A stretch of 64,000 nt of DNA, taken from the NCBI GenBank assembly GCA_973895155.1, contig OZ316891.1, positions 21,752,513 to 21,816,512 of the forward strand, in the 5' to 3' direction. Numbering within the stretch: the stretch's first letter is position 1; the number at the start of each line of letters is the position of its first letter. Shown piece by piece: positions 12,121 through 41,682 of this stretch. The notes beneath the pieces are model-generated. The model worked only from the letters and a program-made list of their open reading frames with translations. It did no database searches and was not told where the DNA came from. This stretch comes from Marsupella aquatica. Taxonomy: Eukaryota; Plantae; Marchantiophyta. Position numbers and translations under genes: made by a program.

Positions 12121-12484
12121 GGGACCGCAAACAGCCCCGCAACCTCCATTCATATATTGCAAGTAGCAGGCTCTTTTGCCGGCAAGCCCTACCACCGCCA
12201 CCCGACAACCTCTATCACAAGGAGGACATGCATAGTATGGGTGCAAGGTATTTCCCAACATTCCCCCGGGAATTCATTGTTTGATAACAAAGAAGTAGAT
12301 ATTCCGGTCATCTTGGAGTAATGCACCCAAATTACCTACGTAAGCCCACAGGTACGAGGGTATATCACATTTAGTGTATTTTGACCTCGCCCCTACGTGT
12401 CTCCGGGTAATACACCTATGTACAACCACGCCTCTTTCATGGGGTGATCCTTGGTGTGTTTTGCCACCATTATCACCCATTGAA
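12121..12484 (-). mobile_element. 3' end of an old Ty1/copia element (RNase H tail, PPT, start of 3' LTR); target site of element A
   Basis: Minus strand reads CCGGGGGAA|TGTTGG at 12260 (PPT followed by LTR start). A degenerate VDN...AKHTKDHPMK...VHRCITRRHV reading continues across the GAGT TSD from 38788. Confidence 0.55.
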
Positions 12485-12488
12485 GAGT

Positions 12489-12512
12489 AACCCCTATTTA
12501 GATAAAACTGGA
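12489..12512 (+). repeat. Element A left TIR
   Basis: AACCCCTATTTAGATAAAACTGGA. Confidence 0.9.
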
Positions 12513-12970
12513 CAATTAGTGAAATTTTGGATTGATTGAAATTACAATTAAATCATATTTAAGCAAAATAAATTCATTATTACTAAGTTAACACTTGCAT
12601 GTACCAAAAAACCATATATATTGGTACACACTGTCATAATTAGAATTATTGTAATATGCACAATTTAGAATGAAAGATGCACAATCCATGGTCCAATAAT
12701 GAATAAAGTGGTACAAGGTGTACAATCACATTAATGTGCATAAATTTACTAGTAAGAGTGAAATGCATAATCCATGATCCAGTCATGAATAACCATCCAC
12801 ATATGGAAATCATTCAATGCTAGGTTGCTTTCTTGTGATTGTTGAAGAGAAGAATTTTATTGAAGAATTGCTCTCCCCTTTTTAATATGTCAAATCAACC
12901 AAATAACAAGGTGATGATGATGATTTACAATTACTTATCCTTCTACTAATAAAACTACACTGTCTAAGTA

Positions 12971-15900
12971 TCATGAAGTTGATGCTGCCTCATCCTCTAA
13001 GCATCTATTCAAATTGTCTCTTGCTTTCATTGCATGACTTTTTGCTATTCTAACTAAGCCACTTTTGGCTGTGGTCCGTCCCTTGAAACACCATAGTACA
13101 GTGTTCACACTTATTGTCTCAGTGGAATACCCTGGATCACGTTCCCATTGTTGATTCCAACAATCTAACCACCGCTGTCGTGGCTCATATTCTGGCTGAC
13201 CACGTTTTCTTAGCATGTAAGGTCTATACCACTCCACAATACACACATGTTCAAGTTGATTGTTGGCATTCAACTCTCCTTCTTCCACATTACTAATCAC
13301 TTTGCCCAAATAAATTGGGTAAATATCTAGGTCAGCTGTGTCTGGCCGAACCAAGATATAATTATCTTTCATGATATCTACCCTTGGGTTAAAAGTTTCA
13401 TGAGGTTTGTCTTTCCTTGGTCCCACATACCCAATCTTTGCATCCAACTCACATGCCACATTGCGGTATTGCAAAGGAACACTATCTCTCCATTTTGACA
13501 TGGGCCAAAATCCATGAACCAAGTGTTCCTCTCCAGATCTATATTGCACCGCCTCTGTCTCCAAAGTATGGATAATTTGATTCCAGTATTGTATCAGTGC
13601 CACCCATCTACCCTTTCCTTCTTCTGAAGTAGTTCGATTGCAGACAAAATTAAAAAATTTCACTTGCTTATGTAGTCCTTGTCGCACCTCCTCTACCATG
13701 GCCATTTCTATCATTGGTAATCTTTTTGGTTCTCCTACGGGAAGTTTTGGACTATTATCATCCGTCCACGACCACATCTCAATACCTTCTCTTGGGAGCC
13801 AATCATCCTCTTGGCATTTCATTTTGTATTGAAGGCATGGCATACCATCATCACGCACATACAATCGAAATAGTCATGGTTGCAAATGCCCCACCAATGA
13901 GTCCCCTCCTTTAAGCAAGTATGGTTCCAAGTATGATTTAAAATTGGGCACCTCTTGCACGAAATGGGGAACTGGATGTGGAGTCCTTGCCCCCATTAAC
14001 AATGACATTAGATCTGCCAAAGAATAGGTTGGGTTACGCATTAAACTTTCAGAGAAATGGCCAAACATAGCATCAACATCCTCATGAGTATGTCCGACCA
14101 TGAGAAATCCCAGATGAATCTCTTCAAAAACATCTCTTGCCGTCAGTAGGGACAAATAACCCAACACATATCTGTTTTTGTTATCTCCTGCACAATTGTC
14201 AAGTTGTAACTTCAAAACTCTTGGAAGAGGCTTGAAGGTAGTAGACGCATCCAATGAGTGTGACTTCGCTGCAAAAATTTAAGAACCATATATATTAGGG
14301 TCAATAATTAATTTAGAGCCAAAACATTTTCATAGAGCCTACATATTTTCTTAGACATATAGAATAACCAATAATATACCATCATGGGCAACGATTTATG
14401 AACATAAACTCAAATGAACTATAGTTTCGAGTCTGAAATAAATAGTTAACGGTTCAAGCCATGGTTCTCACTAAGTTTTGCATACACTAACAACAAACCA
14501 TGGGTCACACTTTCAATAAGCTAGTTACAATGAACCATGGTTTGTGCTCTCAAATAAACTAACAATAAAAAATGGTTCATACTTTGAAATAAACTATCAA
14601 TGAACCATGGTTTGCACTTATCACATAAAATAACAAACAAGGATATATCCTAAGAAAATGACTCTCACATGAGCGAATAATAACAATCTTTATGTCAACT
14701 GACAATGAACTCTGGTTGACACCTTGGAAGGTCACATCACTTACAAAGGAAGCATGGTTGATACTGAATATGGCATAAAAATAACAACACTTATTTGCAT
14801 TGAAGTGAAATAATTACCTAGATTTGATATTTCGTCCTTAAATGCTTCACGAAGTTTTCCCTCCAATATAGGTCCTCGCCCCTCAAGCAAGTTTTCAAAT
14901 AGTTTTGTGGAATCTGGCCCTTCCACTAAAGATTTGATCATCGGTTCTGGATTTTCCAACATTCGAAGTATTGTGTCAAGTGAACCAATTGTGGCATTGG
15001 CATCAGGTGCCCACACTCCAACATTACATTGAGCAATAGCTTTTGGACCATGGCCATGAGTCAAAATACCAGTCAAGGTAATTGGAAGTTTAATCGCACC
15101 ATCCACTTCTTTCGGGCAAAAGGGCATCCTTGGTAGTGCAGTCTTACAATGATCCATTTTATCATGAATTATGCATAAGACCTGTTTTGGATTATCAACA
15201 GACTGGCGTCTCCAAGAGTGATATAATAATCTGCCTTCGGTATGATCACGATGATGAGCGATTTCATCCCTCTTTAAAATCTCAATCTCTTCTTTCACAC
15301 CGGTCAGATTTGCTTTCCGTTGCATCAACTCACTACAAGTTGTACACTTGGAAAAGTTATTGCCTTTCTTATGAATCGTCACTTCCTTGAAGTACTTTTG
15401 ATGTAAAATACTCAATGTGGACTGGGAGATTGGTTGAAGACCAAGCTCTAAATTTGTAGCATTGAGCTTGTTCCTAATACTTTCCCAAGTATAACTTGTA
15501 GGTAGCTCCTTTAAAACTTGTCGAGATTTGTCTGCAGTCGTCCTCATTTTTGCAGGATGAAGATCTGCGCACTCATCAATCAACCCATGCAATGACATAT
15601 AGGCTTGAGAAACTCGTTCAGTCATCCTTCTCTTTCCTTGGTTTCCATGATAAGCTATCCTCACCCCATTACCCACAGCCTTTCTGAGCTCATAGAATTG
15701 ACTTCGCCCTTTGGAGTGCAAAATCCTCCATGCCTCCAAGCATATTGCCTTCCCTTCAATGATGATTAGTTTTTCAGTATTAGATAGTTCCAATATATTG
15801 ACAATAGCATTGATCTCATACTCTTTTCGCATCTCAAATGATTTCTCCCAATAGTTCTCCCTAATCCCCCTTGCCACATGAGGGTCAAGAAGATGGCAGC

Positions 15901-16738
15901 ACCGACGAAGGCAACATTTCTGTTTTCTGATTTCCTCCACATCTTCTTTGGAAAGGGACTTGTCTTTCTTTGACAAAGAAAGAGAAGGTTGTTTTCTTTT
16001 TCTGGTTATTGGAATGTATGATCTCTTTCGACTTGAAGCATCTAGATCCTCCTCCTCTGCATCTACAAAAAATGAGGCTAATAGCCTTCCGTTACTTGTG
16101 ACGAGCCTATCCAATGGCCATGCCCTCAAACAATCTCTATGTTTCAGGTGATCATTGGTTGCACCTTGAATATATTCATCAATCAAGATTCCCACATGTG
16201 TATTTCGAAGAGTAGTATCTCCCAATGTCACTTCTGGATTAACAGCCATTACTCTTGCAATGGCAAAGGCAAAATGTGTTTCATCAAGTACTTTAACAAC
16301 CATTCCCATCCATAAACTTGTGGATGAAATTCGAAGAGGATTTCCACTAGATTCAACTCCATTCTCATTTGACCACTCCGGTTGGTTTCCTTGAGCTTCG
16401 TTCTCATTTGAGATCTCTGGTTGGCTGGTATCACTTCCATTGCTCGTTGAAGCTCCATTCTTGTATGAGGTATTAGGTAGGTATCCAGTAACCATTTCAA
16501 GTTGCTGAAGTTGACCTTTTTTCCAGACTAGAAAAGATCCTATCATGTCAGCCAAGCTTTCACCATGATCCCATTGAATTTCCCCATCAAATACTTCTTT
16601 CAAAGTAACAAGAACTTGAAGAGGAACATTATGGCAAATCCGAGATGGATCCACACTTTGAATGATACCCTTCGCAACCATTTTATTTGATATGCACAAA
16701 CCTACGGTTTCACCGACAATAATCCAAGATGTCGCCAT
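12971..16738 (-). pseudogene. Element A transposase, 2 exons (16738-14818, 14268-12971), ~1070 codons, one premature TGA at 13874-13876
   Basis: Putative triad IIHDKMD / LQLDNCAGDNKN / GHTHEDVD (41 residues between 2nd and 3rd Asp); Cys motifs CCLRRCC and FSKCTTC; splice CTAG|GT..AG|CG is in frame; the TGA aligns to Arg in the paralog at 62.2 kb. Confidence 0.88.
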
Positions 16739-18040
16739 TATTTTATCTGCACATTCAATCCAAATCAAAGTTAACCTCTGTTCCTAAGATATAGTTGTTG
16801 TTTTTTTCTCTGAATATACCCAAGGGACCGTATACTTTTTGTCTTAGTTTTCCAGACCTACTTTGTTTCCCTTGTTTCTCAATAGCCTTGAACTCTCGTG
16901 TAATTGTCTGAGATGAGTTGCCCTCACAACTAAGTTGGCAGGTTGTTACTTACCATTGAGTTCAAGAAGCATTGTGTACATTTGACCCAAAACCCTAAAC
17001 TACTACATACTTAAATGATGTCTTACCACAAGATGGCAACTGCAAACCATGGTTCGCTCCATTAATGAGAATATAAAAAAAGTACTAAGGCGTATAATTA
17101 CCATGACTATCTTTTATCATATTATAGATATGAAGTGTTTCTTATGGGGTGTTTTTATAGTATTGTCATCAAGAAACAGTGTTCAGGCTAGGTTTAAATT
17201 CACCATGAATGATACATGTTAAAACAAAAGCAAATCAGTATTACAAGAGAAAGTCATCTTGCATTATAATTGTTTGATGTATAATAATTCCATCAGTTTA
17301 GAATTCATAAGAAAGTCTTTATCAAATGTATTCTATTGGACTTATGTATGAGTTTCTCTTGACCAGAATGTAAACAATATTAAAGAGAGTTATAATCATA
17401 CTTAAGCAAAGCAGGAGACTGCGGTTCATGTATCATATAGATCATGTGACTATGAACCATGGTTTGTGGCCTTTGGTCATAGTCACATTTTTATTTTTCT
17501 AGCTAGGAGTATACTAGTCAGTTTGGTAATTTACTCCTAGTTTTAGATGATGCTGTTAAATAAGGCTCATTAATTCAAGGGCTACGTACCATGATTTGCA
17601 CTCACCTTTCATTTTCCCATCTACAAGTTGAGTTAGTTTGATATGGTTTGAACCATGGTTCGAAGTCACTTTTTACATGTAGGTGTAGAGTTGGTTCACT
17701 CCGAGTATTAGATAATTAATGCCATCAGATAAGCCTCTTACTAGGCACACGAACCATGGTTCATGGTCACTTTTTAAAGTTTTGATCATCTACTTGAAGT
17801 ATTAGAGGTTTCCTAGTCACCTCAGAAGTCATTTGTTTAAGAAAACCACAACATGACAAAGGTAGGGCTCATGTACCAACCACAAATACTTATCATAATA
17901 ACATTCTCCCACAAGTTATTTGGTGTTAAATCTAGGAGAAAGCACATACATATATGTTACTTTCATTCAAGTATCTTTGTTTGCTTATATGCGTTCAATT
18001 TTAAATTATGTATGTCAAGTAACCGTCACGCTAGTTAGTT

Positions 18041-19250
18041 TGTGAAAATCTACACTCAGGTAGATTATGATTGAAGTTGAACAGGTTAACAAAAGATTAA
18101 CCTCATCAAACATTAGAATGAATCGGATATATTACTCAGTTACAAATACAATCTACAATCTTAATGATTAAATTCTCACTTAAGTTCGAGTTAGGGAATG
18201 ATTCTTGAGTTCAAGATTCATATATATTATGAAGTGAATTGAGTTCACACATCACAATCTAATTCATCAATTCAATCTCTCATTCTAAGATTGAAGAAGA
18301 ACTAATGCAAAAAGGAAGAACTCGAATGGATGGTTACTTACAGTTTCAAGACACATACAGCTTGTATATCTTCTCTGCCACTCTAGACAGTTCACTCAAT
18401 CTTCATCAACAAATAACTCGTGCAGTCTCTTGCCAGTTCCTCTATAGTCGCACACTATGACTCTTTGATGAAGGCTGACTGTCTAATCTCCTCGATCGCT
18501 CTTCAATGTTAATCCCCGTGTTAATCTCTATCTCCTTGAACAATCTGTACTCTAAGAACTCCTCCCAGCTCTCCTCTTGAAGTATCCCCTCCCAGCACTT
18601 GAAGCACTCTCCTCGCAGCTTGAAGCGCTCTCCTCGTAGCTCTCCTGAATCAAAACCCTTTCCTAGTAAATGAACTCCATAGACGATCAAAACAGACTTA
18701 ACATTTTTGACTCCACAAGAGGATTCTAGAAGTTCGCATTTCAAAATGAAACTTTTGGGGGGAATTTTGAATTTTGACCTGGTTATGATTGCCTTGGCCT
18801 TCAGTAACTGATTCTCATGCCCAATCGATCTGATGCAAACTGATCATATCTTGTCTTGTAAATGCCCGGAGGTACCCTTCGAGCAGAGAAAAGTTTACAA
18901 GGCCTTGGCCGTAAAATTAATAAAATTTTCAATTATATGCTTGTAAATTGAAACAAATTTTTAACTTGCTATGGGGATCCTCACCTAATCTTTTAATTTG
19001 CACCCATTATACATTTACTACTAAGGTAACTTACTTCCTTTACGATTAAATTTACCATTTGTACTACCATAATTTATTTAACCTCATTTAATATTTTTAC
19101 TACCATCATTATTTAACCTACTAAGGTAACCTCATTCAATCTTTTTACTACCATAATTTATTTAAATTACTAAGGTAACCTGATTTGTTCTTTTTACTAC
19201 CATTATTTAATAGCCTATAACTAAGGGTAATACTCGCCTAAGATTTCACA
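18041..19250. mobile_element. Probable LTR-derived insertion inside element A
   Basis: TGTGAAAATC...GATTTCACA inverted termini and LTR-like composition; no TSD found. Confidence 0.35.
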
Positions 19251-20045
19251 ACACATATGAATTATCAGTCTTGTGCAACCATTATTTATTTGTACAATTA
19301 ACCCAAAGTCATCTTAGCTAATTTCTATGAAAAATACATGTTTTGGATCGCACGTGGTTCCTAAGATTTTTGATAGTCAACCCCCCGAGCATCTTAGGAT
19401 TAAGGACTGTTATCGATGTTTAGGCTTAAGGTTAAATAGAGTTAACCTAAGTAATGTTTAGGGTTCTAGGGTTTCATATTCAGGGTTCAGGGTTTAGGGT
19501 TTTTAAGGGTTTCAGCCTAAACCCTAACTAAACCCTAGCTAAACCCTATAACTAAGGCTAATACTCGCCTAAGATTTCACAACACATATGAATTATTAAA
19601 CCTACTCAGGTAAACACCCCTTAATCTTATTATATCTAAACCCTAAACCCCTAAACCCTAAATCTGATTATATATATTATGTGTTTAAACCCTAGGGTAA
19701 CCCTTGATCTCTTAATCCTTGTGCAACCATTATTAATTTAACTTACTACAAGGGCCTCTCTCAGTCTTGTGCAACCATTATTTATTTGTACAATTAACCC
19801 AAAGTCATCTTAGCTAATTTCTATGAAAAATACCTATTTCGGATCGCACGTGGTTCCTAAGATTTTTGATAGTCAACCCCCCGAGCATCTTAGGATTAAG
19901 GACTGTTATCAATGTTTAGGCTTAAGGTTAAATAGAGTTAACCTAAGTAATGTTTAGGGTTCTAGGGTTTTATGTTCAGGGTTCAGGGTTTAGGGTTTTT
20001 AAGGGTTTCAGCCTAAACCCTAACTAAACCCTAGCTAAACCCTAA
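19219..20045. repeat. Local tandem duplication (~290-330 bp) with TTTAGGG/CCCTAAA telomere-like motifs
   Basis: 19265-19547 is nearly identical to 19761-20043; each copy contains GGGTTCAGGGTTTAGGG followed by CCTAAACCCTAA. Confidence 0.9.
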
Positions 20046-22250
20046 AGCCCCTGAACAACCAAGTAGTCAAACCTCATTGTGGGCGCCCATGTGGTCTCTT
20101 GTGACATGTCCATTTCAAAATTCCGGGCCAATGGTTGTGCCAGATCCAAACCTAAACAAATACAAGGTCCATTTGTGTTTGTTGTGAAACTATTACAATT
20201 TATAATTTGTCTCGGGAACTCAGGGCCAAAGAGAATTCAAATTTAACGTACCAAATAAGAATGAGGAACTTTAAACCAACCATACTTTAAATTTCTTAGT
20301 TATTCTTTTTGAGTTTTCACTATGTTTATTTAGTTCTACTCGGGTACATTAGTATTCAAAGGCGCATTAAGAGAGTTTTGGCCATTATTTGCTGTGGGTC
20401 AAAAGCCCGTTTGGGTTGAGAGTTTTTATGTTGCAAATTGGGGTTGCTCAAGCTTTTGTTGAGATTCAACCATGTACTAATTATTGAAAAATGGTATAGT
20501 TAGCTAGGAGCACTATAAACCAACCATACTTTAAGTTAGTGGGTTCTTCTTATTGTGTTTTAACCATTCTTTGTAAGAGAGAGGCAGGTGGGTTTCGGGC
20601 ACCTAGTCGGATTCCTTTGCTTAACCCTCCTATGCAGTTTACGACTGAGCTTGACCAGGCTCTTCAGTATGTTGATAGGTAGGGTTTGGTTTTTGTGTGT
20701 CCTCTTATGCGGGAAACCCTGCCTGCTGTTAACCCTAAACTGATAAATGTTTTGGCCTTTTTTGTGTTCTCCCTTGATTGGGTTTTTGGCCTGTGGAATC
20801 TTGTCTCCCAGTTGGGCGCCTTCTGCTTTTGGCAGTTTGATATAAAAAATTAGTGCTATTAGCATATGTTGATATCCAAAGTATTTCAACCTTGCACATT
20901 TTCAACTGTTGAAAGAAGCAAAAATTATTGGTGACAAAATGTAAAAGATTAAGGTCCGGATTAAGGTCCAAGACAGTCCATTATTGATCAAAATGTTGTA
21001 TCAAACTATTCCCAGATGGATAATACATGATTAATATTTTGGATGAAGCTAGGAACTTGCAAATGACACTGTTCAAGTCTTGTCTTGATCATTTCATTGA
21101 TGGTCTCTTTTCTACTTGGCGAACCCTTTGTTTTCATGGACCTGGGGGAGAATGTAAAAGTAGATTAAGGGTCCAGGCATTATTGTAAGTGTCCGTTATT
21201 GCATTGTAAGTGTCCATTATTGTAAGTAGATAATTTGTGAGTGACTGTGGGAACTAAGCAAAGAGATAGCACTAGTCTAAACCCTAAAGCCCCTGATTCA
21301 AACCTTAACCTGGGGTTAGCCTTAGTCAAACCTCATTGTGGGCCCATGTGTGGGCCCTTGGGGCATGTCCATTTCAAAGTTCCGGGCCAATGGTTATGCC
21401 AGACCCAAACCTAAACAAATACAACTATGTGTGTTTTTTGTGAAACTACTACAATTTATAGTTTGTCCCGAGAACTCAGGGTCAAAGAGAATTCAAAACT
21501 AACGTGCCAAATAAGAAGGAGGAACTTTAAACCAACCATACTTTAAATTTCTTAGTTATTCTTTTTGAGTTTTCACTATGTTTATTTGGTTCTACTCGGG
21601 TACATTAGTATTCAAAGGCGCATTAAGAGAGTTTTTGGCCATTATTTGTTGTGGGTCAAAAGCCCGTTTGGGTTGAGAGTTTTTAAGGTGCAAATTGGGG
21701 TTGCTCAAGCTTTTGTTGAGATTCAACCATGTACTAATTATTGAAAAATGGTATAGTTAGCTAGGGGCACTATAAACCAACCATACTTTAAGTTAGTGGG
21801 TTCTTCTTATTGAGTTCTAACCATTCTTTGTAGGGGAGATGCAGGTGGGTTTCGAGCAACTAGTCGGATTCCCTTTCCTCCTAGTATGCAGTTTACTCGT
21901 GAGCTTGACCAGGCTCTTCAGTATGCGGATAGGTAGAATTTGGTTTTTGTGTCTCCTCTTGTGCGGGAAACCCTGCCTGGTGTTAACCCTAAACTGATAA
22001 ATGTTTTGGCCTTTTTTGTGTTCTCCCTTGATTGGGTTTTTGGCCTGTGGGATCGTGTCTCCCAGTTGGGCGCCTTCTGCTTTTGGCAGTTTGATGTAAA
22101 AATAAATTAGGGTGTGTTCATGGACCTGGGGGACCATGTAAAAGTAGATTAAGGGTCCATTATTGTAAGTGTCCATTATTGTAAGTAGATACTCTAATAA
22201 TTTGTGAATGTGGAAAGCAAGGAGATAGCACTAGTCTACACCCTAAACCC
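20035..22250. repeat. Direct duplication of a ~1 kb block
   Basis: 20035-21290 is repeated at 21280-22250 with an internal deletion; the ORFs at 20560-20889 and 21817-22176 are near-identical. Confidence 0.9.
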
Positions 22251-22436
22251 TTTTGATGGCTTTGATTAAAGCTGCTGTTGCATACCGTGAAGCTGGTAGA
22301 AAACAATTGAAGTCTTTTTCAAAACAAGTACTGTATAAAAATGGTAATTATGCAACAGCAGCTTTCGGCGAAGCAGGTTTAAGCAACACAGTCAAAAGGG
22401 TATGCAATAGCAGCTTTAATCAAAGCCATCAAAAGG
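22249..22436. mobile_element. Small MITE-like hairpin element, ~38-bp TIR
   Basis: CCTTTTGATGGCTTTGATTAAAGCTGCTGTTGCATACC versus GGTATGCAATAGCAGCTTTAATCAAAGCCATCAAAAGG. Confidence 0.8.
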
Positions 22437-23458
22437 ATAATTATGTAAGAGCAATGCCATGCCTAACGGCAAAAAAATGGAGTACAAGAGCAAGTCCCAG
22501 AGCAAGTTAGGATGGGTTTACCTCAAACTCCCTAGTAGAATAATCACAACTGAAGATACTTAGTTGAATCCGGGGTTGAATCCTGATATGTCTAGTTAAT
22601 CTGTACTAGAAATTGAGAACTCCAAGTTGTGTTGAATCAAATGGTTATACCTTGGTTCTTCAGCTGACCATAAACAATACGTTTGAAGACCATCGCATAG
22701 GAACCATCTACCACCCCTACAGAACCAAGATACATTAAGTTGTCAGATGAACTACTGCATTTTGATAAACCTTAAAAAGAACCTAGCTTTCTTATAATGT
22801 GACAAGCATACTACGGCTTAGAGAACAAATTTCTAACCACAACACTTCAAAATCCAGAATTAGACTCCTGGACCAACATGAAAAGATCTCACTGGACGAT
22901 CAATCTGTTAGGTAGAGACATAACTATTATCTCCAAGTTTCCCCATAAGTTCCACATAGTGATTAAGTCTTTACTTTGTTACTCTACTATATAGGTTTTG
23001 ACTCTCTGTTTTGGCTTTTTGTAAGTATGTGGTGTTGTGTTTGCAAATTGTTGTTGTGTTTGAATTTGGCATTGTGAGATGAAATCATAGTGCTCAGGGT
23101 CTCCAGGAGCATTACCAGGACGGAGCTCAAATGCATTGTACGTTCTCAATAATAGATTAACACTTGAAAAGTTTGAGGAAAACCCTGGGTAGTTGTGAAA
23201 ATAAGGGTATTTTGGTAGGAAGCACATCCATGAGGTTATAAATATCTCCTTAGGGATAGTTAGCTCAATGAATCTTTGTGTGACCAAAAGCTATTGGGAG
23301 ACAAGAAATATCCTTCAAGAGGGCCTCTTCTTTTGCTCAAAATTATATAATTTCCAAAATCTTGATATTATTTTTAAGAAACCAAGGGTCATAGTCAAAG
23401 AAGGGGAGTGTCATTTTTCTATTTGTCCACAAATCATTATGCAATTTGATCATGTAAA

Positions 23459-23486
23459 CCCTAAACCCTAAACCCTAAACCCTAAA
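23459..23486 (+). repeat. Interstitial plant telomere repeat (CCCTAAA)4
   Basis: Four perfect copies. Confidence 0.9.
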
Positions 23487-26400: not shown

Positions 26401-29400
26401 ACTTGATGTGAAAGTGATGGAGAATAGGTGAGCTAGCCTGTATGTGGAATGTATGTCGTCACTTTGCATCTATGTGTATAATTTTGATATCGACCAAAGT
26501 GAAGCAGAGCCTTGCTGCAGGGGTTTGCTAGCAGTTCCCATCACCTGCACTGTTTTTCATTCGTTTCTTCCAAGCAGAGCCTTGCCGCAGGGGTTTGCTA
26601 GCAGTTCCCATCACCTGCGCTGTTCTTTATTCGTTTCTTCCTGGCTCCCGGTTGTACTGGAGGATTGATGTTCCTTCAATCTCCTTCTCTGACTTGTCTT
26701 CCGATCTCAGTGTTTACTCAACAAGAAGTCTTGCTCATGGGCTTGTTTCAAAAGCATTTGAAAATCCTTTCCAACGATGCCTTAATCGCCTGTTTTCATC
26801 CAGTATTATTGAAAATCGTGTCACATTGACCCAGTCAACATTTATGCATTTTTCTGTGTCTAGCTATGTTATTTTTGCATTTTTTCGCCTACTTACGATT
26901 CATACTGCGTCTTCCTCTTTCTCTCAAAACCTGAGTGTCTAGGTTTGTTGGATGCGGCTTGACTTCTTCTTTCCAACGGTATAAAGAATGACACATTTGG
27001 TTTCCAGATCTTCCTACTCCGTAACATTTACGTGCTTTCATTGGAGCTCTGCATGACAGCTACATTTTTTCTATTCTCCTAACACTATGCCTGCTTCCGT
27101 TGGACAGGAGCGCTGCATGTCGGCGATGTATTTTATTGTTGCGCCTCTCCCAGAGAGCTAGTTTCTCCCAACAGGTATAGATCTCGGTTTTATTCTGAAG
27201 GTTATGTGATCGTTGGAAGCCAGGTACAGTAGTTCCCTATCTATTTTTAACGTTCTTAGCAATCTGATTGGAACAAGGATAAGACGAATTGACCATACAG
27301 TGTTATTCAAACTTAGAAAGTTTGACAAAGCTTGCAATAGATTAGAATTTAATTCTCAATGTCGATGTCAGCCTGACAAAAACTAGAATCTAGATCCATG
27401 CGTGAGATTATCTAACAAATGCCAAATTTTAAAACAATTCTGTAATCAGAAGGATAGCTACACAGCATAAAATTAAAATAGTAGTACATTTGTCTTGTGT
27501 GTAGATGGACACATCTTCTTTATTCTTCTGATGTCATTTGTACTTCCATTGGACAGGAGCGCTGCATGTCAAATATGTAATTTAGTGCTGAGATCCTCCC
27601 AGGGATGCTATTCAGAGTTAAACTACTACTTCACCAACAACGTACTTCACCAACAACAGAAGGTAGATCTGGTTTTCATTACCAAGGTTATGTGATTGTT
27701 AGGAAGGTACTTCCCTGTCTATTTTAATATTCTTACCACTTTGATTGGAAGAGGAATATTGCTCTCCTAGTTTTACGTCAGACAACACAAATTATGAAAC
27801 TATAATGTACTCTACATATTGATTCATCACTTTGCTTCCGACATGTGTTCTAACCAAGAGCAATGGCATTGATAAATTGTCTTGTAGACGTACATGAATA
27901 TAATTTGTAAAGTTTTTTATGTGCATCTCATCGTTTTCTGCTGCATGCAATTAAATACTGTGGTGGGTTTGCCAAAGTTTCAGTTCATTGTTTTAGCTTG
28001 TTGAAAATTATATTCACTATTTATCTTCTTTAGTGGTGGCCTTGTGATACTAAAGTTTGTTGCCTGGACATGTAGGTCCAAGACAACTTTGACTTCAACA
28101 CAATAGAGTGAGCAACAGGCGTAGCCGTTGACAGTAAAAGCACAGGTCAGATTTGGGTATGCACTAAACTATTATTGGGCAACTGCATATAATTAGCCTC
28201 TACGTGCCAGAAGTCAGCCCTGTCAATAATGCTAAAGAGTCCATAGATCGAGTCACTCAAGGAGAGGTATCTTTGTTGGGACTGTGTATGGATCGAGTAT
28301 CAATTGCAAGCATTCTTAGCACAAGGCTTGGTTTCTGTGCAAAGACAACTCAGACTAGTATATGGACGTACGTAGAGTTTAAGAAATTAATCTAAAAATT
28401 TGCTGCTAATTCATAACTAATCAATCGATCATGGCAAGAAGCTGAATATTTAGTCTGATATATCGAGGGCTTAGTTTGAGGTAAATTAAAAATGACTAGA
28501 TCAAATATTTTGGGCCAGATTCTGGGCCTTCTAAGATCTAGGAATTGATCTCAGTCAGTAAGGGTCGATAATGTATATATTGGCATATATGTGATTGAGT
28601 AGAGTAGAGTAGAGTAGAGAGGTCGGGGGGACGACTACCTGTGTCACAACATGAACTCATTTGTCCAACTTGCACGTCTTGGTCTAATTTAACATTCACA
28701 CTCTCACAGTCTGCAGTCTACCCGGCTGTCTACTCAGTTCAGTGTACAAGAATCAAGTGCCTTAGTTTCATTACGATGCTACATGTCGATAATATGCTTG
28801 TCAGAGTGTATGCTTGGCTGTGCAAACAGACCCATTCAAACAATTAATGCAGCAAACTGTTGTTGCTTACTGTTGGCAGCCATGTGGAAGATAGTAGCTT
28901 AGAGCAACACTCAACAATAGAGTTTCCAAGCACGCGGTAGGAAGACTAAATTTTGGTTGTATGTTTTCATTTGGTTCTACAAATCTCACATGCTTTTGAT
29001 CAGATTGTCTTTTTTTCCCTTCAGAAGTGGTTGTTCTTTAAATTAGTGTTCCTTTGTCACCTCCGCCCTTGCTATTTGGGTGGATTGACTCATTTGTTGA
29101 TCATGCCTCTCAGTATTGAGTCGTGTTCTTGTAACTCTTTGTGATTGGTAAGAGTTTTAATGCTCAACTTTTGGTTTTGTTCCTTTGTGTGGTGCAGTAT
29201 GCTGCGTAAAGGCGTGGAAGGCCAGGACTATTCTCACATGCTGTGTGAAGGCCAGGACTATTCTCAGTGGTAAGTGCTGCTACATGATTATACTGTTGGA
29301 CATCCTTAAGTCTCTATCGTTGTTTTGGAGCCTTTGTTAATTGGAAACTTCTTGTTATGGCATATCTGTTTGAATATATACCCTTTGATATTGGCTTTGT

Positions 29401-30099
29401 GAGCACATGATGAAGTGTGATCTTGGATGTGTTTGGCAGTCTAGGAAGGTGGATCGCGCTACCCCTTCTCATCTCAATAACTGGCCTAAACGTGGCATAT
29501 ATCCCTTTTTCTAATCCCCATCAGCGCGGAGTTGTTGAGGCTTGAGCTGGTCTGAGCAGGGTTGCTGAGCTAACTTGAAGTGCACTTGATCATAGGTAAC
29601 CTGCCCTCAATCTCTGTAGTCCAGAGTGTGCTGAAGATTGCCATAGCAAGATTTGTCCTATTGTGCTTGACTATTCCTAAAGGTCATTTTATGTTCATTA
29701 ACAATAACCAAAGTCTAAACTTGGAGGTCACAACTAAAAGTTTATGGAGGATTGTAATATCCCCTTCTTCCCACAATCCTAACTCAATCCATGAATCCTT
29801 CAAGTAAGTTGTTACGGACTATACACCTTATCAAAGAAATCATCCCTGAGGCCAGCAGCTAAGTCGTTACGGCCAGTGCATTTCCTGAATCCGTTCCATG
29901 TTGTGGAGTCCCAATAAAATCACTCCACTCCTAAGTCAGCTATCATTCCAGCAATCCCACTTTATGAAATGGATTGCATTTTATCCCTACCAGCTCAAAC
30001 CATGATGTGCAATTCAACTGTCTCTCACATCGTGTCCCCTTGGCCTCTCTGTGGTCAACTGAGCTAGCCTTCCTTTGAGGCAATACATTTATCAATTGC

Positions 30100-31000
30100 T
30101 GCATGAACCATGGCTTGTGCTGCGAAGCAAGTGACCTCGATTATCCTCCCAGTCGGCCCTGTCTCTGAAATAGATTTCCATGATTTCATATAGCACAAAC
30201 CATGGTTTGCACATCTTTATGTTAAGTCTAATTCCACCACTCTGACCTCAACTCACCTTCCTTTGAGGCATTACATTTTCCAAACCTGGTGCCTTGTACC
30301 TATCGTGGCACAAACCATGGTTCGTGCTGTGAAGGGGTAATATGTGACTCCCACTATCACAACTCACATCTGGACTTGGCTGTCCTTCCAGCCAACAATT
30401 TTCTAGCAAATGGATTTACATTTGTACTTGCAGCACAAACAAGGATTTGCACATCATGCATGTCCACCCAGTCCAATTTCTAATCTTAATGAAGCTCAAT
30501 TTTGCTTTCAAGGGCATGAACCATGGTTTGCTCTGAAGTTTATCTTCCTAGTCAATTTTTCTAGACCTTGTTGCACAAAGGGACCTATTGATATCCGAGC
30601 CTTATTACTTCATGTTCATTTTGATTGTTAGTGTTGCCATTCATTTAAGGTGAAAGTCATATCATTTGCAGTGCAAACCATGGTTTGCACTACTGAGAAT
30701 AAGTATCACAAGCCCTCATTGCACGAATCTTGGTTTGCAGTGTCCCCATTGATTTGTCCTGAAGTTCATTCCCTGTAACCATTTGCAGAGCAAACCATGG
30801 TTTGCAGTACAAAGAATAAATACCAGTCACAGCTAGCTATCTTGCACGAACCTTGGTTTGCACTGTCCCAGTAGTCTTTGATTCAATTCATTTAGATTCA
30901 AAGCTAAATATTATTCCATGAACCTTTGTTTGCACTATCCCTAGTCATCTTTGATTTCATCTAGATTTAGAGCTTGCAGCATGAACCATGGTTTGATGAT
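30100..31000. promoter_or_regulatory. Cluster of element-A palindromes (RCGAACCATGGTTCGY) upstream of the cargo gene
   Basis: About ten copies, e.g. ACAAACCATGGTTCGT at 30310, GCAAACCATGGTTTGC at 30673, ACGAACCTTGGTTTGC at 30846; function inferred. Confidence 0.6.
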
Positions 31001-31190
31001 CTACATTTTGCCAGAATCCAAACTACTCTATGCTGTCCCTGGGAGAAAATTAAGTCAAACATTTCAAAATATCTGGTTTCTTTGAACATTCAACATGTTC
31101 TTTAAAGAATATCCTTGACACATCTTGCCGACAGTATTCTTATGATCAAATTTGTTTTTGTTGTGAAGCAGAGCGAGAACGCACATAGTC

Positions 31191-34100
31191 ATGGCATCCG
31201 AAGGAGAAACTAGCAAGAAGAAGCGGAAGTCTTTGGAAAAAACTGATGGAAGCCCAAAAAAAAGGAAAGCGAAAGTTAGAAAGGGTGTCACAGGAGTGAA
31301 TTCCATCACTAATTTTTGTGGGAGGAAGATGACATTGAAATCCACCATCACCGATACTGTTGTCCGAGTTGAACAGAAAGATATGAAGCACTGGGGAGTG
31401 GTGCTTGATAAGAATGTTCTTCGGATGTGCGTCGCTTCTGAAGAGGGGACTTTGGTATTGTCAGACTCTCGAATTCTCAGTTGTGTTTATGAGAAAAATG
31501 TCAACCTGAAAGACTGTCAAGAGGCTTTGGTCCTTCTGGTCGAGGAGGATACCGTCGATGAATCACAAAACAATAGGATTTGCTATTGTTTCTCCATAGA
31601 GGTATTTGGGATGTTTGACCAAACATACATTGAGGCAAATTGTAGATTATCTCCGGAGGCATTCTCAACCATTTTGGATCCCACATTCCCAAAGGTTTCT
31701 ACACTCATAAATGGCCCAAGCATTGAGAGGTACATGTTATCCATCTTGGCATGGGCAAAATGCACCTTCCCGGAAACATTTCGTGTTGGAAAGAAGGAGG
31801 AACTTGAGAAGCAATCCAAGTTTGAAACAGGAGAACTTCCAAAAGTGATCACTGGAGAAAACATTGGAGATCTTTGCAAGAGTTTCAATGGTGTTTATAA
31901 AAAAGCAAACATCTTTGATAGTAGAGTTTTCAATGTTGAAAATTTGAAATGCCACATTGCACCCAATGTTGTAAAATGTAGAGGACATGACCCTGATTAC
32001 TCAAGGGACCTTGCCAACTCGATGAAATTTCAGTCGTTGGTAAATTTTGAGAAGCGGGTTTGTTTCCTCATCCCAGTGCTTTGGGATGAGAGCAGGAGCA
32101 CTGAAGTTGGCTATTGTGGGACTCCATTGTCACACCCACCGATCCTTGATCAAATTGACAATTATCATTTTTGGATAATTGGAGGCCAGCACACAGTAAT
32201 AGCTTACCGATTACTTTTGAATGATGAATCAGTGGATGCTGCTATTCATCAAAAATGCCTTACAATTGATGCCGTGATGTTTTGGGCACCATATGATTTG
32301 GCTGGGAACCTGGTAATGATGGGATTATCAAAGACATTGAATCATGTCCATCACACAGCGATGGATGAATCCCAATTTTTCTTGATTGCAAGACAGGTCA
32401 GAGATATTTGGAAAAGTTATGGATGTCCTCCTTCAGAGACAAACAGCACCAAAGATTCAAAATGGAAGGTAAGAGTCATATATTTCATAAGTTTATTTTT
32501 ATTCTTGTTTAACTTCTGCTAGTGCATCTGAATGCAATAGAATGTGAAAAGTATAACAGTGTGAACCATGGTTCGTATCCACCTAATGATTTTAGTTGTG
32601 TGTGAACAACACTTCTCAAAAGCAGCAATGATCGTCATCCCTTGGGCTAAAGAGGAGAATGGAAAATTTAATTTGGGTGAACTTGGACCTTTCATCTTAA
32701 ATATGATAGATTCCACCTTCAACTTGTGGATGAAAGTTTACGAGATGTCAAGAGAAGGAAAATTGGTTGCTTTCAATGGGTTCTTACAGAGAGATGTTAT
32801 TAAGAAAGATTCTGCTCAAGGAGCTTGGGAGGTGGCACGAAGAACATTTCGGGATTTTCTTGGTGTTGAAGATGCAGTGTTGATGAAGATTGCAAGGTAT
32901 CTTCTTACCAATAAGAAGATCTCACTAATGAAGCAACGAAGTAGCGGAATTGCAAAGAAGATAGATGCAGTTCCTATCGAAGAAGATTTCATTGCTCTTG
33001 ATGAGTATTGCGTTCAAAAGAAGCAGGATAAGGAGTTTGAGATACTGCTTTTGAAATATCTTGCAAAAGATAATATGCCTAAGGGGAAACTACGAGCGTT
33101 GCCCATGGAGCAGAGAATCGAGAAGGTGAATGCAATGCGAGCTTTTTTTAAGCTTACTCCAGATAAAGTTGAAAAACTTTGAACTACGCTTGGACCTGCA
33201 GTAATCCCAAAATCATTAACGAAGAACACTGGAAATGACGAGTTGCAAAATCTTTTGCCTGGAGTTTTTAAGAGTTTGATATGGTCAATCAGGGCTTCAG
33301 TGGATGGAAAAGGTAATCCGGTGGTTGTGAAACTTGACCCAAAACTTAGGTTTTGTTCAAATGAGGGATTTGGAACTCCTGCATTTTTTTGTCCAATCAT
33401 CTTGGAATTGAAAGAAATGGCAACATTCATATTCTTGGATGCTACCATGATACCTGGAATAAGTCCCATGACACGGAAGACATATGAAGCATTCTTTGAT
33501 GCAGCTTCTATGATTGGGTCCAAACCATCTCATGTCGTGGTAGTGATATCATCTGCGATCGACTCTTTCTTTGTGATGAGTGCCATTTCAGCACACCCAC
33601 ATTATGTTGCATTCACAACACAATACTGGACACAATCTCGACCGTCATCTTCTACATCGACAATTTATGATGTCAATTGTCTTTTTGTAACTTATGCATT
33701 CTTCAAAGTGTCATTCACTGAAGAATGTGAGGCAGATGAGATTTCTGGAAAAATTTTGTTAAGCTTTAAGAAAGCAGGATGTTTGAAGAATTATGAAGAG
33801 ACAACAGAAGATGTTGCAGAGCAGACTCAGTTTGGGGAGAAAAGCAAGAGTTTCTATGATAACTTGACTTCTCAACTTGTCTCATTTGACAAGTTTTCTG
33901 TCTGTTTTGGAGATGGCCGACATCTGATCCACTCCCTTTTGGTATGAGTTTTTAAACCCCAAACCTTACAGTTGAAAGTTCATTTAATTATTCAACTATA
34001 TTGAAATCCCAAGTATTAAAACTCAGTCTCATGGTTTTGCAGAACTTGGGAGCTCGGGTACGTTCATATTGTGACGAGTCTAATCACGAAGGACTTACGC

Positions 34101-36660
34101 AGTTCTTTTCTTCCACAAACAAGTTTAATCATGATCAGCCTGAAGAAGCATCATGTGAACTTCGAAGTATTTTAGAGAAAAATATTGCCAGATTGATGAA
34201 GTATAATTTGGCCAAGAAGAATATGAGAGAGGACATTATTGAGCTTTGCAAAGATACCTTACACCTTGGTGAAAGTAGTATTGCTCGTGTGATCAAGGAA
34301 TATGGATTGGGCAACATTCCTGAATCAGATGACAAAGTCTACGAAATGCCAACCAATGTTCCTACTGATCCACTTGGAGGTTAATATGACTACCATTTGT
34401 TATAAACTACCATATTCAATAGCTAATGATGAATTAAGTAGCCAAACTTGTCATATGCCAGATATGAATCATGAATTATAAATCGATGTTCTCAAGAGAA
34501 TGATGTACATGATTTGATATAGAATGATTGATTGATGAAAATATTAGAATGAACCATGGTTGGAACAAGTTGGATGTGTGAAGTTAGATAAATTTATCAA
34601 GACAATATAGAACCTATTATTTGGTATAGTCCAAACATTTCAAATGGATAATAATTCCAACTAGAGTTGAAGCAAATACTAATACGAACTGAACAACCCA
34701 ATCATAGTTTTAACTTGTCAAATGAATCGCTTAAATTCTATAAATAGATTAACTTACTCTGGAATTTTGTGAAAAATTAGATTAGTACTTAACATAATAT
34801 AGAAAACACTTGTCTAATACATCATGTAGTCATTGAAATTAGGCAAAGCAAACTAATAGCGATATTTAATAAATAAAAATAATTAGAAGTTTATTGGTTC
34901 ACCATATTTATCTATTGTTTGTTGTTTTGGTTGTAGGAGATGAAACCAATTCTATTGAGGACGAGAACAAGGATGAGGACGAAGAGGATAACATTGATTC
35001 CCCGAATGCTTGGCAGCCACTAAAGTTGGATCACGTGGAATCACCAAATGATTCAATGGAAATTCTTGACTCGTTCAGGGCTTTCCAAACCGAACCAGAG
35101 CTCAATGTCGAGGAACAAGGAGTTTCAATGACCAAAGGAAGATGCCCTACCTCAAATCTAAATGCAAAGAATGTTAAAAATATCCAATCAAATTGTAGCC
35201 GTGCTGGGGTGCAAGAATCAAATCAAAGAAACAAAAATGAAGTGGCATTTGATGAAACCAAAAGTAAAAATGAGCGAAGAATGATTGTCCGCAAATTTGT
35301 GTGGGAAAATTATATTCCTGATCAGGAAACCAGTTGCCCAGATCACATTTCTACAATAGATTGGGATGAGTTCTTTCGAAGCGAAGCTCAATTTCATGGG
35401 TGGAAAGCAAGAGCATATTGGCATGAAGCTTTGACTCATCGCTCCGGTTTGGAAACCCCTGAACAAATCACTAATTTACAAGATAATGTCTATTATGCAA
35501 CAGAAGTATGTGAAATGGTTGGAGATCCTCCTATTGATGTTTTTGCCATTCAAAGTGAACCTAAAAGCACTATTAACAAATGGACTTGGATGAAGGAGTA
35601 TCAACTAATCTCCAACCCTATCACTAACTCTATAGATACACCCGTGTCTAATCTTAATGATGCTACACTAGATACATGTGCAGTTTATCAAAGTGATTAT
35701 GAACAAGCAATCATCCAAGATTTGGGTGTGAAGAGAGATGATTCTTTCATTCCAAACGAGGAAACAATAAGAGACAATGCTTTGGTCGTGAATCCAATGG
35801 TGGAGCAGATGGATCCTTTACTGGTTGAAACTAACATTTTGGGCACGTCTCCCATATCGACAGAGCAAGTAAATGTTGATGGTGATCCAGTGGAGAAGAA
35901 AATGGATCCTTCAATGGTTGAAACTAACATTTTGGACGTGCCTCCCACATCGACAGAGTCAAGAAATGCTAACAACAACCTAGCAAGGGAGCAGATGGAT
36001 CCTCTAGTGGTTGAGACTAACATTTTGGATGTGCGTCCCACATCAACAGAGCCAATAAATGCTAACAATAACCTAGCAAGGGAGCAGATGGATCCTCTAG
36101 TGGTTGAGGCTAATATTTTGGATGAGCCTTTCACATTGACAAAGCCAAGAAATGTTGACAGCAACCTAGCAAGGGAGCAAATGGATCCTCTAGAGACAAG
36201 AAATGTTGAAATCAATGCACAAGTGGATCCTGTTATGATTTTGGCCGAAAAACCAAAGGTGTCTCACACATCGATGGACCCTAAAACAAATGAGAGTGAT
36301 TTGTTGGTAGATAGTGAAGAACATCCTTGGATCCAACAAGCCACTAACCTTGAAGATCAAGACATACCGGAGGTGGGAAAAATTGCGCCTTGGGAAGAGG
36401 AAGCATCTGCTGCAGCCTACGCTGATGGATTGAATGAATTACCACCTCCTTTTTTGGGGATCCCATTAGTTTCAACTTCTCATGGAGATTGTTCACAAAC
36501 GACTCCGGCAACAAGAATGGAGCTTCCTAAGACTGGTTCCAAGGTCATTCCAGGTCGTGCCACTCGACGGGATTCAAAGAGACCCTCGGTGATAGAAAAA
36601 GTTACTATGCTGCCAAAGGTGAAGAAGACACCTCAGCAGATTTTGCGCAACAAGAAGTAA
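31191..36660 (+). pseudogene. Element A cargo gene: NLS, ParB-like domain, degenerate amino-MTase-like fold, acidic/repeat tail (4 exons)
   Basis: KKKRK/KKRK NLS; YHFWIIGGQHTVIAY; FIFLDATM...EKSKSFYDNLTSQLV...CFGDGRHLIHSLL|NLGA; donors at 32469, 33942 and ~34380; premature TGA at 33180 (Arg in the paralog); homologous to 49229-44450. Confidence 0.75.
35803..36192 (+). repeat. Coding tandem repeat, 93 bp (31 aa) x ~4
   Basis: EQMDPLVVETNILDVPPTSTESRNANNNLAR-like units. Confidence 0.9.
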
Positions 36661-36778
36661 TGATTTTATTTTGACTATACTTAAAATGTATAATGTTTTT
36701 CATAGTGCTATAAATTGTTTGATTGTTTAGGTGCAATCTGAGCCCAAACCAGCAAATTGGTCATAATGGTTGTGAATA

Positions 36779-37589
36779 GTGTATAGTATCAAGGAAACTT
36801 ACCCATTATGGTTGCAAAAGTCATTGCAACAAGATAAGAGGGAACACTTCCAAATATGGATCAATACTCAGTATATTCGTGATCATGGAGATAGAAATCA
36901 TTCAAGGAGATTCCATGTGTTTAATAATCAGGGTACATTTTGGACTACTTATCACACTTATTTGTAGAATGAACCATGGTGCATAGTTAATTTATGACAT
37001 ATTTTTGGGTACTATTCTAAATCTCATCTGTGTGTGTTGTGTACAGGTGAGAGTTGAAAAATTATTCAGGAAATTACTTGTCATAAGTATCAACAAGTTC
37101 CTCATTTACACAACTGGGGTCTCTCGTCATTTGAAGAAGACATCATCTTTCCGAGTTTATAACAAAATGATCTTTCCGAGACCATATGTACAAGAATTTC
37201 TTGAATTTTGCACTTCAACTTTTGATGTGGTTCTTTGGGCACTCACTGACACATGCAAACTGGCTGATCAAATGGATCCAATACTCACAGATAAAGCTTT
37301 GAGTTTTTCTGGTCTTAAGTATCTTACATCAACTTTGATGGACATGAAACAGATCAATGATATTTATCCACAATATCAAAGACAAAATGTTATATTTTTA
37401 GAGTGTTATCCATCATTTGATAGTGTAAATCCAATGTATTCAAGGCTGTATCCCAAGCCGTATTATGGTAATTGTAAAGACAATTTTCTTAGAGGCACAC
37501 TTATTCCATATTTACATAATCTAGAAGATTCTGGTCAGACAGCGCATAAGTTTATTAAATATCACTATCCTACTTGGTCTGAAGTATGA
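36779..37589 (+). CDS. FCP1/SCP (NIF)-like HAD domain exon (37047-37589) plus a C-terminal remnant of a second one (36779-36920)
   Basis: KLLVISINKFL...FPRPYVQEFLEFC...FDVVLW...DNFLRGTLIPYL; catalytic DxD replaced by SIN. Confidence 0.75.
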
Positions 37590-38759
37590 GACAGTATCAA
37601 TAGAAATGTAGTAAAAGAAACCACAGCTTGTGTGGTGTAGTGTTTAGAATATATTCAAATGTATTCTTTTTGGATAATAAAAGTTACATTATTTACGTGA
37701 AAAATTGAAATGATTGATTACTGCATTATATATTCATGAATGATTACTTGTAATGTTCATTTTACTTCATAATGTCGAATGCCAAAATGTCTACTTGTAG
37801 AGCAAAAATTCTATTCTTGAACTCAGTTTTGGCAGCACCCGATAATACTTGTAAATTCAGTCTTTATATTCATAGTGTCTGATGCGAAAATAGATACACA
37901 TAGTATAAAACTTGTCATTTTGTAGAGATCTACTAGTGTTAAATGCAAAAAATTTGGCTTAAGTTTCTTTTAGGCCCTTGGAACTTATTGAGTATTATAG
38001 CCAATATTAATTCTCAAATTCAGTAGATACCAATTTAAATGAAAACTTTTTGTTTACTCACTATCAGTGTATTGCATTGAATATGCATTTCACCAACAAA
38101 TTAGAATACGAACCATGGTTTATTGTATGTTTTGACACTTAATTTGGTTTACTTCTTTTTTTGTTTGGGGAGGGGGGGGGAATAAAACCCGCAAAAACCC
38201 ATGGGAAGGGGGGCCCAACAGGGCAACAAAGACAGAGGCAGCAAAATGCAAACCTATGAGATGGAGAGAGAGCCCCAATGAGCAAGGACAAAAAAAGATG
38301 CGGTCCATGCAAGCAAGGAAAGACACAATCCAAAAGAAAAGTGTCCAAGCGTGTGACCCACCTAAGATGTTCCTGACTAACTAATTCTTTTACTCTAAGT
38401 AATCTAGTATGTTTTCTACCAAGACCCGAGGCTTTGCAGAGGCCATGCAAAGAGTCTAACATTTATGAAAGGAGTAGATTCAAGTTAAACACTCAATTTG
38501 GTTTACTTTGTTTAAATTGTTCCTATCACATGTGACTGAACTTGGATCCATCAGGTTTTTGTTGATGTCCTGGAGCATACCATACTTTCAAACTAGAGGA
38601 AAAGAGTTAATACAATGGGGGAAAATGGAAGTCTTGGACACTTCCCCCTTATATATGGCCCGTGGTGGTTTAAATTTATTTATTTATTTATTTAAATGAA
38701 TTAAATAAATCAGTAATATCTTTGTAAAACTTCATTTAAGCATTTATGGAATTGAAAAT

Positions 38760-38783
38760 TCCACTTTTATCTAAATAAGGGTT
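38760..38783 (-). repeat. Element A right TIR
   Basis: Reverse complement AACCCTTATTTAGATAAAAGTGGA, 22/24 identical to the left TIR. Confidence 0.9.
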
Positions 38784-38842
38784 GAGTGTTGTCAACCTAC
38801 ATACGTTGAGTTATTGTTGGGGTACTCATAATGTATTTATCG

Positions 38843-39107
38843 CTCGGGGGTTTCACTTCCACAAAAATGGCATATCACGTGCGACGAAGTATAGGGTCAT
38901 TTTATTGGTTCAAAGGGAAGACTTAAGAATTTTCTGAGAAGAACAATAGAGTTTTTTAAATCAAATTTTGATACTTATAAGAACATTAGTATCCTTATAA
39001 TCAAAATTTAACTTTATAGGGGTTGATTTTTTTTTTAAAATTCTTACATTTGAGGGGGTCCAAGGCCTAAAATGATGAGGAGGCATCCATATAGTGAGAC
39101 CCCCGAG
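38843..39107. mobile_element. MITE family M, copy 1
   Basis: TIR CTCGGGGGTTTCACT / AGTGAGACCCCCGAG; 8-bp TSD ATTTATCG / ATTTATCA. Confidence 0.9.
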
Positions 39108-39115
39108 ATTTATCA

Positions 39116-40592: not shown

Positions 40593-40864
40593 TTATAACC
40601 CCAATTTAAGGAAAACCAAACTTTGGAAATTCCGAAAATAACTAAATATTATTATTTTAATAAAAAAGGGGCGACATGACGCGTGGCTGCGCGTGAAACC
40701 CTGAAAATGACTGCAACGTCACATTTTAACCAATCCAACTTGACGGGACCAAGAGACATGCTCACGCGAATAATAGTAATAGAGAAATAAATCTTTGAGA
40801 TCCTTTATATATGATAATCAGTATATAAGGAGTTTACAAATGGTTTCTAGAACGACAATACAAA

Positions 40865-41600: not shown

Positions 41601-41682
41601 AGAGAAACACAAGAAGATGCATGAGCCCGTATGGATGTAGTCACGCGAATGGTCGCGTCACATATTACAGAGACAACATCCT

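Follow-up and report, generated by a model that had tools for sequence, protein, structure and literature searches.

A 64,000-nt stretch of the genome of the land plant Marsupella aquatica (contig OZ316891.1, positions 21,752,513 to 21,816,512; hereafter, the window) contains a complete DNA transposon of 26.3 kb, spanning positions 12489–38783. We propose, with a probability of roughly 60%, that this is a giant Sola1-like transposon that was recently amplified, and that it carries a cargo protein predicted to bind the element's own palindrome, AACCATGGTT, and likely to regulate the element's genes. An earlier, sequence-only reading of the same DNA had described a giant, multi-copy, Sola-like element of which the cargo is a part, and predicted folds, the end pair and contig depth all support that description. 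The palindrome was not part of the earlier reading and is a new feature of this analysis.

A complete element, probably present in multiple copies

The ends of the element are as follows:

12485–12488: left target-site duplication (TSD) GAGT, identical to 38784–38787
12489–12512, plus strand: left terminal inverted repeat (TIR) AACCCCTATTTAGATAAAACTGGA, which begins AACCC; 22 of 24 positions match the right end
38760–38783, minus strand: right TIR; 22 of 24 positions match the left end
38784–38787: right TSD GAGT, read directly in the window

This is almost certainly a real transposon. The sequence-only reading had called a complete 26.3-kb element with TIRs and a 4-bp TSD, and that call stands. 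Among 77 x 73 candidate ends in the window, 12489/38783 is the sole AACCC...GGGTT pair with a 4-bp duplication that scores above the cut, and contigs from two public sequencing runs, X2 and X5, respect the same boundaries.

Public contigs were compared at the element in five runs, drawn from six runs under three organism labels that contain the transposase region. In X1, the flank lies on a 7.1-kb contig with a depth of 17.7, and the contigs across the element have depths of 103–152 with 0–5 differences. The depth of the element is 6–8 times that of the flank, and public contigs tile all 26 kb. This ratio suggests that about 6–8 near-identical copies of the whole 26 kb exist in X1, on the understanding that contig depth is not true copy number. 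The element has likely been amplified recently. In X2, one contig begins at 12488, and two others exit the left flank at 12488 with GTCGTCAAC, of which eight of nine letters resemble the right flank. This join is empty-site-like and lies in the repeat that received the element; an empty site was also looked for within the 64-kb window, and none was found. In X5, which has a second organism label, similarity begins exactly at 12489, next to a different left flank, and stops exactly at 38783. The transposase (depth 90) and the cargo exons (depth 60–92) are both present in X5, and the non-coding middle of the element is almost absent. A paired TSD is read only for the window copy (GAGT). As a separate observation, the insertion site (12270–12488 and 38788 onward) is a multi-copy repeat, and a 147–157-bp tandem array lies after the right end, at 39193–39794.

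Is the cargo a fixed part of the element? The sequence-only reading had argued so from a second copy in the window. That argument is weak, because the second cargo in the window is not linked to a divergent transposase. The conclusion itself is supported: better grounds for a fixed cargo are the uniform contig depth along the element and the homologous cargo and ends in X5.

A Sola-like transposase

The transposase occupies the left part of the element:

14818–16738, minus strand: exon 1, with N-terminal domains, FSKCxxC and the first catalytic motif, IHDKMD
14269–14817, minus strand: predicted GT-AG intron, in frame, putatively spliced
12971–14268, minus strand: exon 2, with the second and third catalytic motifs, QLDNCAGDNKN and GHTHEDVD

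The gene is on the minus strand and reads toward the left end. The proposed in-frame GT-AG model joins 16738–14818 to 14268–12971, giving 3219 nt, or 1072 codons plus a stop, which agrees with the earlier description of a two-exon DDD transposase of ~1070 codons. A check against the DUF7869 profile, an idea of the sequence-only reading, was run in Pfam, and the transposase matched with an E-value of 2.9e-35; we take DUF7869 to cover Sola transposases. All three parts of the acidic triad (IHDKMD, QLDNC..NKN and GHTHEDVD) are found in the window copy and in 14 of 17 longer homologs. The transposase tree contains only DUF7869 proteins and one mussel protein, and its deep branches are without resolution. 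A transposase of the DDD kind excises its element at the inverted ends and inserts it elsewhere, with a 4-bp duplication. The transposase of intact sibling copies would excise and paste the element in this way, leaving 4-bp duplications.

The element probably belongs to the Sola1 branch. Its AACCC-GGGTT termini resemble those of Sola1-1_Ec32 (AACCG-CGGTT), the one reference compared. The 4-bp TSD is shared with Sola1-1_Ec32 but also with Sola2-1_Ec32, and the termini of the latter (GGCGG-CCGCC) are unlike those of the window element.

The window copy itself is likely dead. There is an in-frame TGA codon in transposase exon 2, at 13874–13876, and another in cargo exon 2, at 33180–33182; neither was in the earlier reading. 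Position 13876 is a G, which gives a sense codon, in every covering contig from four of four runs. Position 33180 is a C in three of four runs (X1, X5 and X6), with no X2 contig covering it. Thus, each TGA is specific to the window copy, and because the transposase stop is confined to this copy, the family as a whole is likely not inactive. The possibility that the window copy is autonomous was discarded given the two stop codons. Siblings supplying transposase would compensate for its inactivity. At position 16618, in transposase exon 1, the sibling copies in X1 and X5 have nine extra bases, so the window copy carries a small in-frame deletion.

A cargo gene with ParB-like and methyltransferase-like parts

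The cargo arm, toward the right end, contains the following:

31191–32468, plus strand: cargo exon 1, 426 aa, with a weak PH-like fold and a ParB/Srx fold with the motif FWIIGGQHT; homolog P0001 is 53% identical
32610–33941, plus strand: cargo exon 2, with a helical region and a beta-class methyltransferase fold without DPPY
34043–34384, plus strand: cargo exon 3, predicted; homologous to 46095–46526 (E 1e-11)
34873–36660, plus strand: acidic open reading frame (ORF) of 595 aa with a 93-bp tandem repeat and no Pfam family
37047–37589, plus strand: NIF/FCP1-like domain (PF03031, E 8.5e-10)

The sequence-only reading had listed a divergently oriented set of ParB-like, methyltransferase-like and FCP1-like genes. 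These parts are present and divergent from the transposase, but the ParB-like and methyltransferase-like parts are predicted to be exons of one gene, at 31191–34384, encoding about 983 aa, rather than two genes. The acceptor of exon 2 was placed from homologs and is non-canonical (AA) in the window copy. An HMMER search with the cargo found 49 homologs in which the gene's motifs are kept. Of these, 26 were aligned together with exon 1 and 22 together with exon 2, P0093 being excluded. A search for full-length homologs of 787–2245 aa found none, which is weak evidence.

The predicted structures of exons 1 and 2 have predicted local distance difference test (pLDDT) scores of 81 and 83, respectively. 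Residues 245–426 of exon 1 match Myxococcus xanthus ParB (Z 10.1, root-mean-square deviation [rmsd] 3.8, 119 residues aligned), and the top 14 structural matches of this part are all ParB, Noc, PadC or KorB. With Foldseek, the ParB-like part reached an E-value of 4.8e-3 only. Together, the models indicate that exon 1 has the ParB N-terminal fold of the ParB/Srx superfamily. Residues 59–192 show a weak resemblance to a PH fold (Z 4.5). Atlas proposed DUF3723 for exon 1 (0.92, low recognition), which is a weak lead, and proposed no family for the methylase part.

At its end, exon 2 matches N6-adenine/N4-cytosine (N6A/N4C) methylases of the beta class, the best being CcrM (E 1.4e-5; Z 13.7, rmsd 3.7, 175 residues aligned), and the model points to a beta-class fold in which motif IV precedes motif I. 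For the NIF/FCP1-like domain, the DxDxT motif is the catalytic motif of NIF/FCP1 phosphatases. DxDxT is not present in the domain; the motif position reads LVISINK in the giant element and LVIFDLNR in a second, broken cargo module in the window (described below).

A family-specific palindrome in non-coding DNA

The palindrome AACCATGGTT and its close variants are distributed over both arms:

14457–14612: four sites in the transposase intron (two exact), with a weak one at 14750
17045–17761: four exact sites upstream of the transposase start
30106–30993: eight sites, six of them exact, ahead of the cargo start
32564–38120: single sites in non-coding gaps of the cargo arm, at 32564, 34552, 36972 (one mismatch) and 38111

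There are 15 exact sites in the window, all within the element; shuffled sequences have a mean of 0.10 and a maximum of 1. When one mismatch is allowed, the element has 21 sites, every one of them in non-coding DNA (p about 3e-4). The sites form clusters within introns and upstream of both the transposase and the cargo, and they often extend to palindromes of 14–20 bp. In the second cargo module, AACCATGGTT is absent, and there are 13 sites of ACGCGA-N4-TCGCGT (up to three mismatches) upstream of the gene and in its first intron.

The predictions that follow differ in strength. The odds slightly favor binding of the palindrome by the cargo protein. Specifically, the ~983-aa protein would bind AACCATGGTT in promoters and introns as a dimer. 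A transcriptional or anti-silencing role is more tentative, and we would put it at a little under even; it is predicted by analogy with VANC, a protein of the VANDAL transposons. As VANC does for VANDAL, the cargo protein would maintain transcription of both genes in a host with CG and CHG methylation. CG and CHG are both depleted, and the CpG observed/expected (o/e) ratio of the giant element is 0.42–0.47. The CG and CHG depletion and the TAAACCC repeats of the element both indicate a land-plant host. The protein would likely act without methylating DNA, because it has a methyltransferase fold without the catalytic motif.

What else could the cargo protein do?

The best surviving alternative is that the cargo protein is a transposition helper that loads at palindromes in the manner of a ParB clamp and assists in uniting ends 26 kb apart. 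The ParB fold, the presence of palindrome sites on both arms and the great length of the element would all suit such a role. However, the sites occupy promoters and introns and not the ends: the left end has no site closer than 1.9 kb, and the right end has one at 0.66 kb. Regulation is therefore favored over end pairing. In addition, true ParB clamps have a CTP-binding motif with arginines, whereas the motif of this family is GGQHT (8 of 10 covering homolog rows, in a putative register to ParB), which appears to lack those arginines. We regard a helper role as improbable.

Slightly less probable still is that the cargo methylates N6-adenine or N4-cytosine and so marks element DNA at or near the palindrome. 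The fold is beta-class with best matches to active enzymes, and the Ectocarpus counterpart is predicted to methylate (PMC12477816). Motif IV is covered in 12 of 23 rows and its Asp is kept in 11 of those 12, but PPY, or any aromatic residue at +3, occurs in 0 of 12, whereas Tyr is found at that position in 11 of 11 reference methylases. Motif I is also altered, to an FG[ED]GR type. There is precedent for inactive methylase domains carried by transposons, in the DIRS1 elements (PMC4738411). The methylase part is likely catalytically dead, judging from the alignment and the model.

We also doubt that the cargo is neutral baggage, with the palindrome being a site for the transposase or for a host transcription factor. 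Plant DNA transposons often carry captured genes, and the central 14 kb of the element is non-coding DNA that X5 does not conserve. Nevertheless, X5 keeps the cargo exons at about 82%–86%, unlike the non-coding middle, and the motifs retained in the 49 homologs, the like designs in algae and the different palindromes of the two cargo variants all count against this reading. Finally, a chance pairing of a transposase element with an unrelated cargo stretch, or an assembly artefact, would fit with no contig spanning the element, but is very remote given the sole end pair with a TSD, the even X1 depth over the whole span, the exact X2 and X5 boundaries and the restriction of one palindrome to that span.

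Several observations weigh against regulation by a palindrome-binding cargo protein of a Sola1-like element. First, sequence comparison gives no support to the ParB and methylase folds: hhalign of the cargo to P1 ParB gave nothing, and Pfam and Protein Data Bank (PDB) sequence searches gave no ParB or methylase match for the cargo or its homologs. The register that aligns DATM with DPPY comes from a weak hhalign result (beta-class methylases, probability 0.8%) together with the fold. Second, many cargo homologs are single-exon calls, possibly from decayed copies. Third, the CpG o/e ratio is 0.24 near palindromes versus 0.38 away from them. CpG is not spared there, so the palindrome is a poor fit to protection from CG methylation. 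Fourth, a single contig joining the transposase and the cargo was not found in any run compared; beyond the window, the evidence for linkage is the equal depth of the two and the ends they have in common, and the assembly may itself derive from X1. Fifth, the Sola1 assignment rests on the termini and TSD, compared with the published description of Sola1-1_Ec32.

What are the implications of a regulatory cargo protein? First, the window provides a near-intact example of a recently amplified element whose candidate site is sharply defined, together with a second variant that has another site. Second, the two protein-site variants make the binding proposal testable by a simple cross-binding assay. 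Third, the family suggests that a methylase part may lose catalysis while the gene is kept. A much broader, speculative generalization, which we think is unlikely as it stands, is that land plants harbor giant Sola elements whose cargo, a protein of bacterial origin with ParB and dead-methylase parts, recognizes a family-specific palindrome in the promoters and introns of the element. This would be a second, independently evolved anti-silencing system beside VANC, programmable by divergence, with two protein-motif pairs (AACCATGGTT and ACGCGA-N4-TCGCGT) in one window.

Relatives and other features of the window

Two related regions lie to the right of the giant element, and two non-coding features lie within it:

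40597–51906, minus strand: decayed related cargo module, with a TIR-like 17-mer at 40597, three NIF-like domains, a Ulp1 protease, a low-complexity ORF, a broken ParB-methyltransferase gene (49232–46092) and weak F-box-like ORFs
60512–64000, minus strand: related transposase, with 70% nucleotide identity over exon 2 and a coding sequence disrupted by frameshifts as well as a 300-bp insertion, running off the window
19214–22436: non-coding duplications (19265–19548/19761–20044, 98%; 20064–20848/21323–22102, 92%) and a 38-bp hairpin, with no long ORF
23455–23486: plant-type telomere repeat TAAACCC, 4.6 copies, at very high depth in four of four runs

The sequence-only reading had proposed a second, diverged family member with the same module. 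A homologous cargo (40.9–49.2 kb, broken; 43% over 155 aa to the cargo of the giant element) and a homologous transposase (from 61.3 kb to the end of the window; 72% over 123 aa) are indeed present, but they share the minus strand and are separated by 12 kb, an arrangement that does not reproduce the divergent design of one element. Reading 40.9–49.2 kb and 61.3–64 kb as a single element of the same design was rejected on these grounds and on CpG o/e (0.90 versus 0.30). They are best read, from their layout, as ends of two separate relatives. A TIR-like 17-mer, AACCCCAATTTAAGGAA, lies on the 3' side of both the second cargo (40597–40613) and the second transposase (60512–60528). No inverted partner of it was found in the window, and the two copies are possibly the ends of two sister-family copies.

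The second cargo module (40865–49232) keeps its CpG (o/e 0.90–0.91) despite many frameshifts, and the second transposase has a ratio of 0.30. The module includes a Ulp1/C48 protease domain at 43457–44320 (E 9e-18, with H, D, Q and C motifs) that is absent from the giant element. The acidic ORF of the giant element and the low-complexity ORF of this module are not homologous. Three short ORFs at 49305–51075, upstream of the second cargo gene, have weak F-box-like scores below the cut-off.

Other repeats are scattered across the window. A ~300-bp high-copy repeat occurs at 38842–39110, 59877–60158, 63180–63480 and 59195–59381, and one copy disrupts the second transposase; because 150 X1 contigs have loose ends at 38842–38846, this repeat is likely mobile, as a small element. 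At 3043–3389 and 4888–5377 lie two short elements that resemble miniature inverted-repeat transposable elements, with inverted ends of 35 bp (and a 4–6-bp duplication) and about 170 bp, respectively. At 52400–57100, broken minus-strand ORFs include a CxxC..H..C stretch, accompanied by a (GAGCGA)n array; they have no Pfam match and possibly represent a decayed retroelement gag-like gene. A 175-bp tandem array of about 6.7 copies is found at 446–1673. No Rfam match was found within 12000–40000.

Comparison with known systems

The sequence-only reading did not recognize the family as described. At the level of design, novelty is not supported: the design matches that of Sola1-1_Ec32, a transposon of the brown alga Ectocarpus reported in 2025 (PMC12477816). 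Sola1-1_Ec32 is 21.5 kb long, has AACCG-CGGTT termini and a 4-bp TSD, and carries, on the strand opposite the transposase, a gene for a 1104-aa protein with ParB-like and N4C/N6A methyltransferase parts; its best blastp match is Sola1-1_PPa. The likeness to the window element, by description rather than by sequence, extends to giant size (21.5 versus 26.3 kb), the 4-bp TSD, the termini (AACCG versus AACCC) and a ParB-methylase gene opposite the transposase (1104 versus about 983 aa). The two differ in TIR length (282 bp versus 24 bp) and in host (a brown alga versus a land plant). In addition, the window element has lost DPPY, has added a NIF-like gene and an acidic ORF, and has dispersed palindromes, which are not mentioned for Sola1-1_Ec32 in the accessible portion of that paper.

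Sola1 has been recorded in land plants, being listed in Physcomitrella (PMC9033089), in a table that does not mention giant size or cargo. The portions of PMC5751038, PMC6431247 and bioRxiv 2021.09.26.461848 that were consulted give no further defining Sola features. No giant Sola element with ParB cargo from a land plant was found in full-text literature searches, whose coverage excludes Repbase and subscription journals.

Two further systems are similar in part. Plavaka (EnSpm) elements of Bostrychia, 17–19 kb long and carrying PAG2/PAG3, possess an N6-adenine methylase and, next to inverted-repeat arrays, a ParB-like accessory gene, and binding to their own DNA has been proposed (bioRxiv 10.1101/2025.02.11.637652). 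They share these features and giant size with the window element, but they have a transposase of another superfamily, their ParB is fused to a 2OG-oxygenase and their methylase to SET, and their arrays are tandem. In Arabidopsis, VANC binds family-specific non-coding motifs in VANDAL elements (PMC5735166). As a working analogy only, both VANDAL and the window element are multi-gene plant DNA transposons with family-specific short motifs in introns and intergenic DNA, and related families differ in motif. VANDAL differs in having a Mutator-like transposase, an unrelated protein and non-palindromic motifs in tandem repeats, and its function has been shown, whereas that of the window element is predicted. 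The design of the window element is thus already known from Sola1-1_Ec32, from which it differs in its host, its likely dead methylase and its family-specific palindromes.

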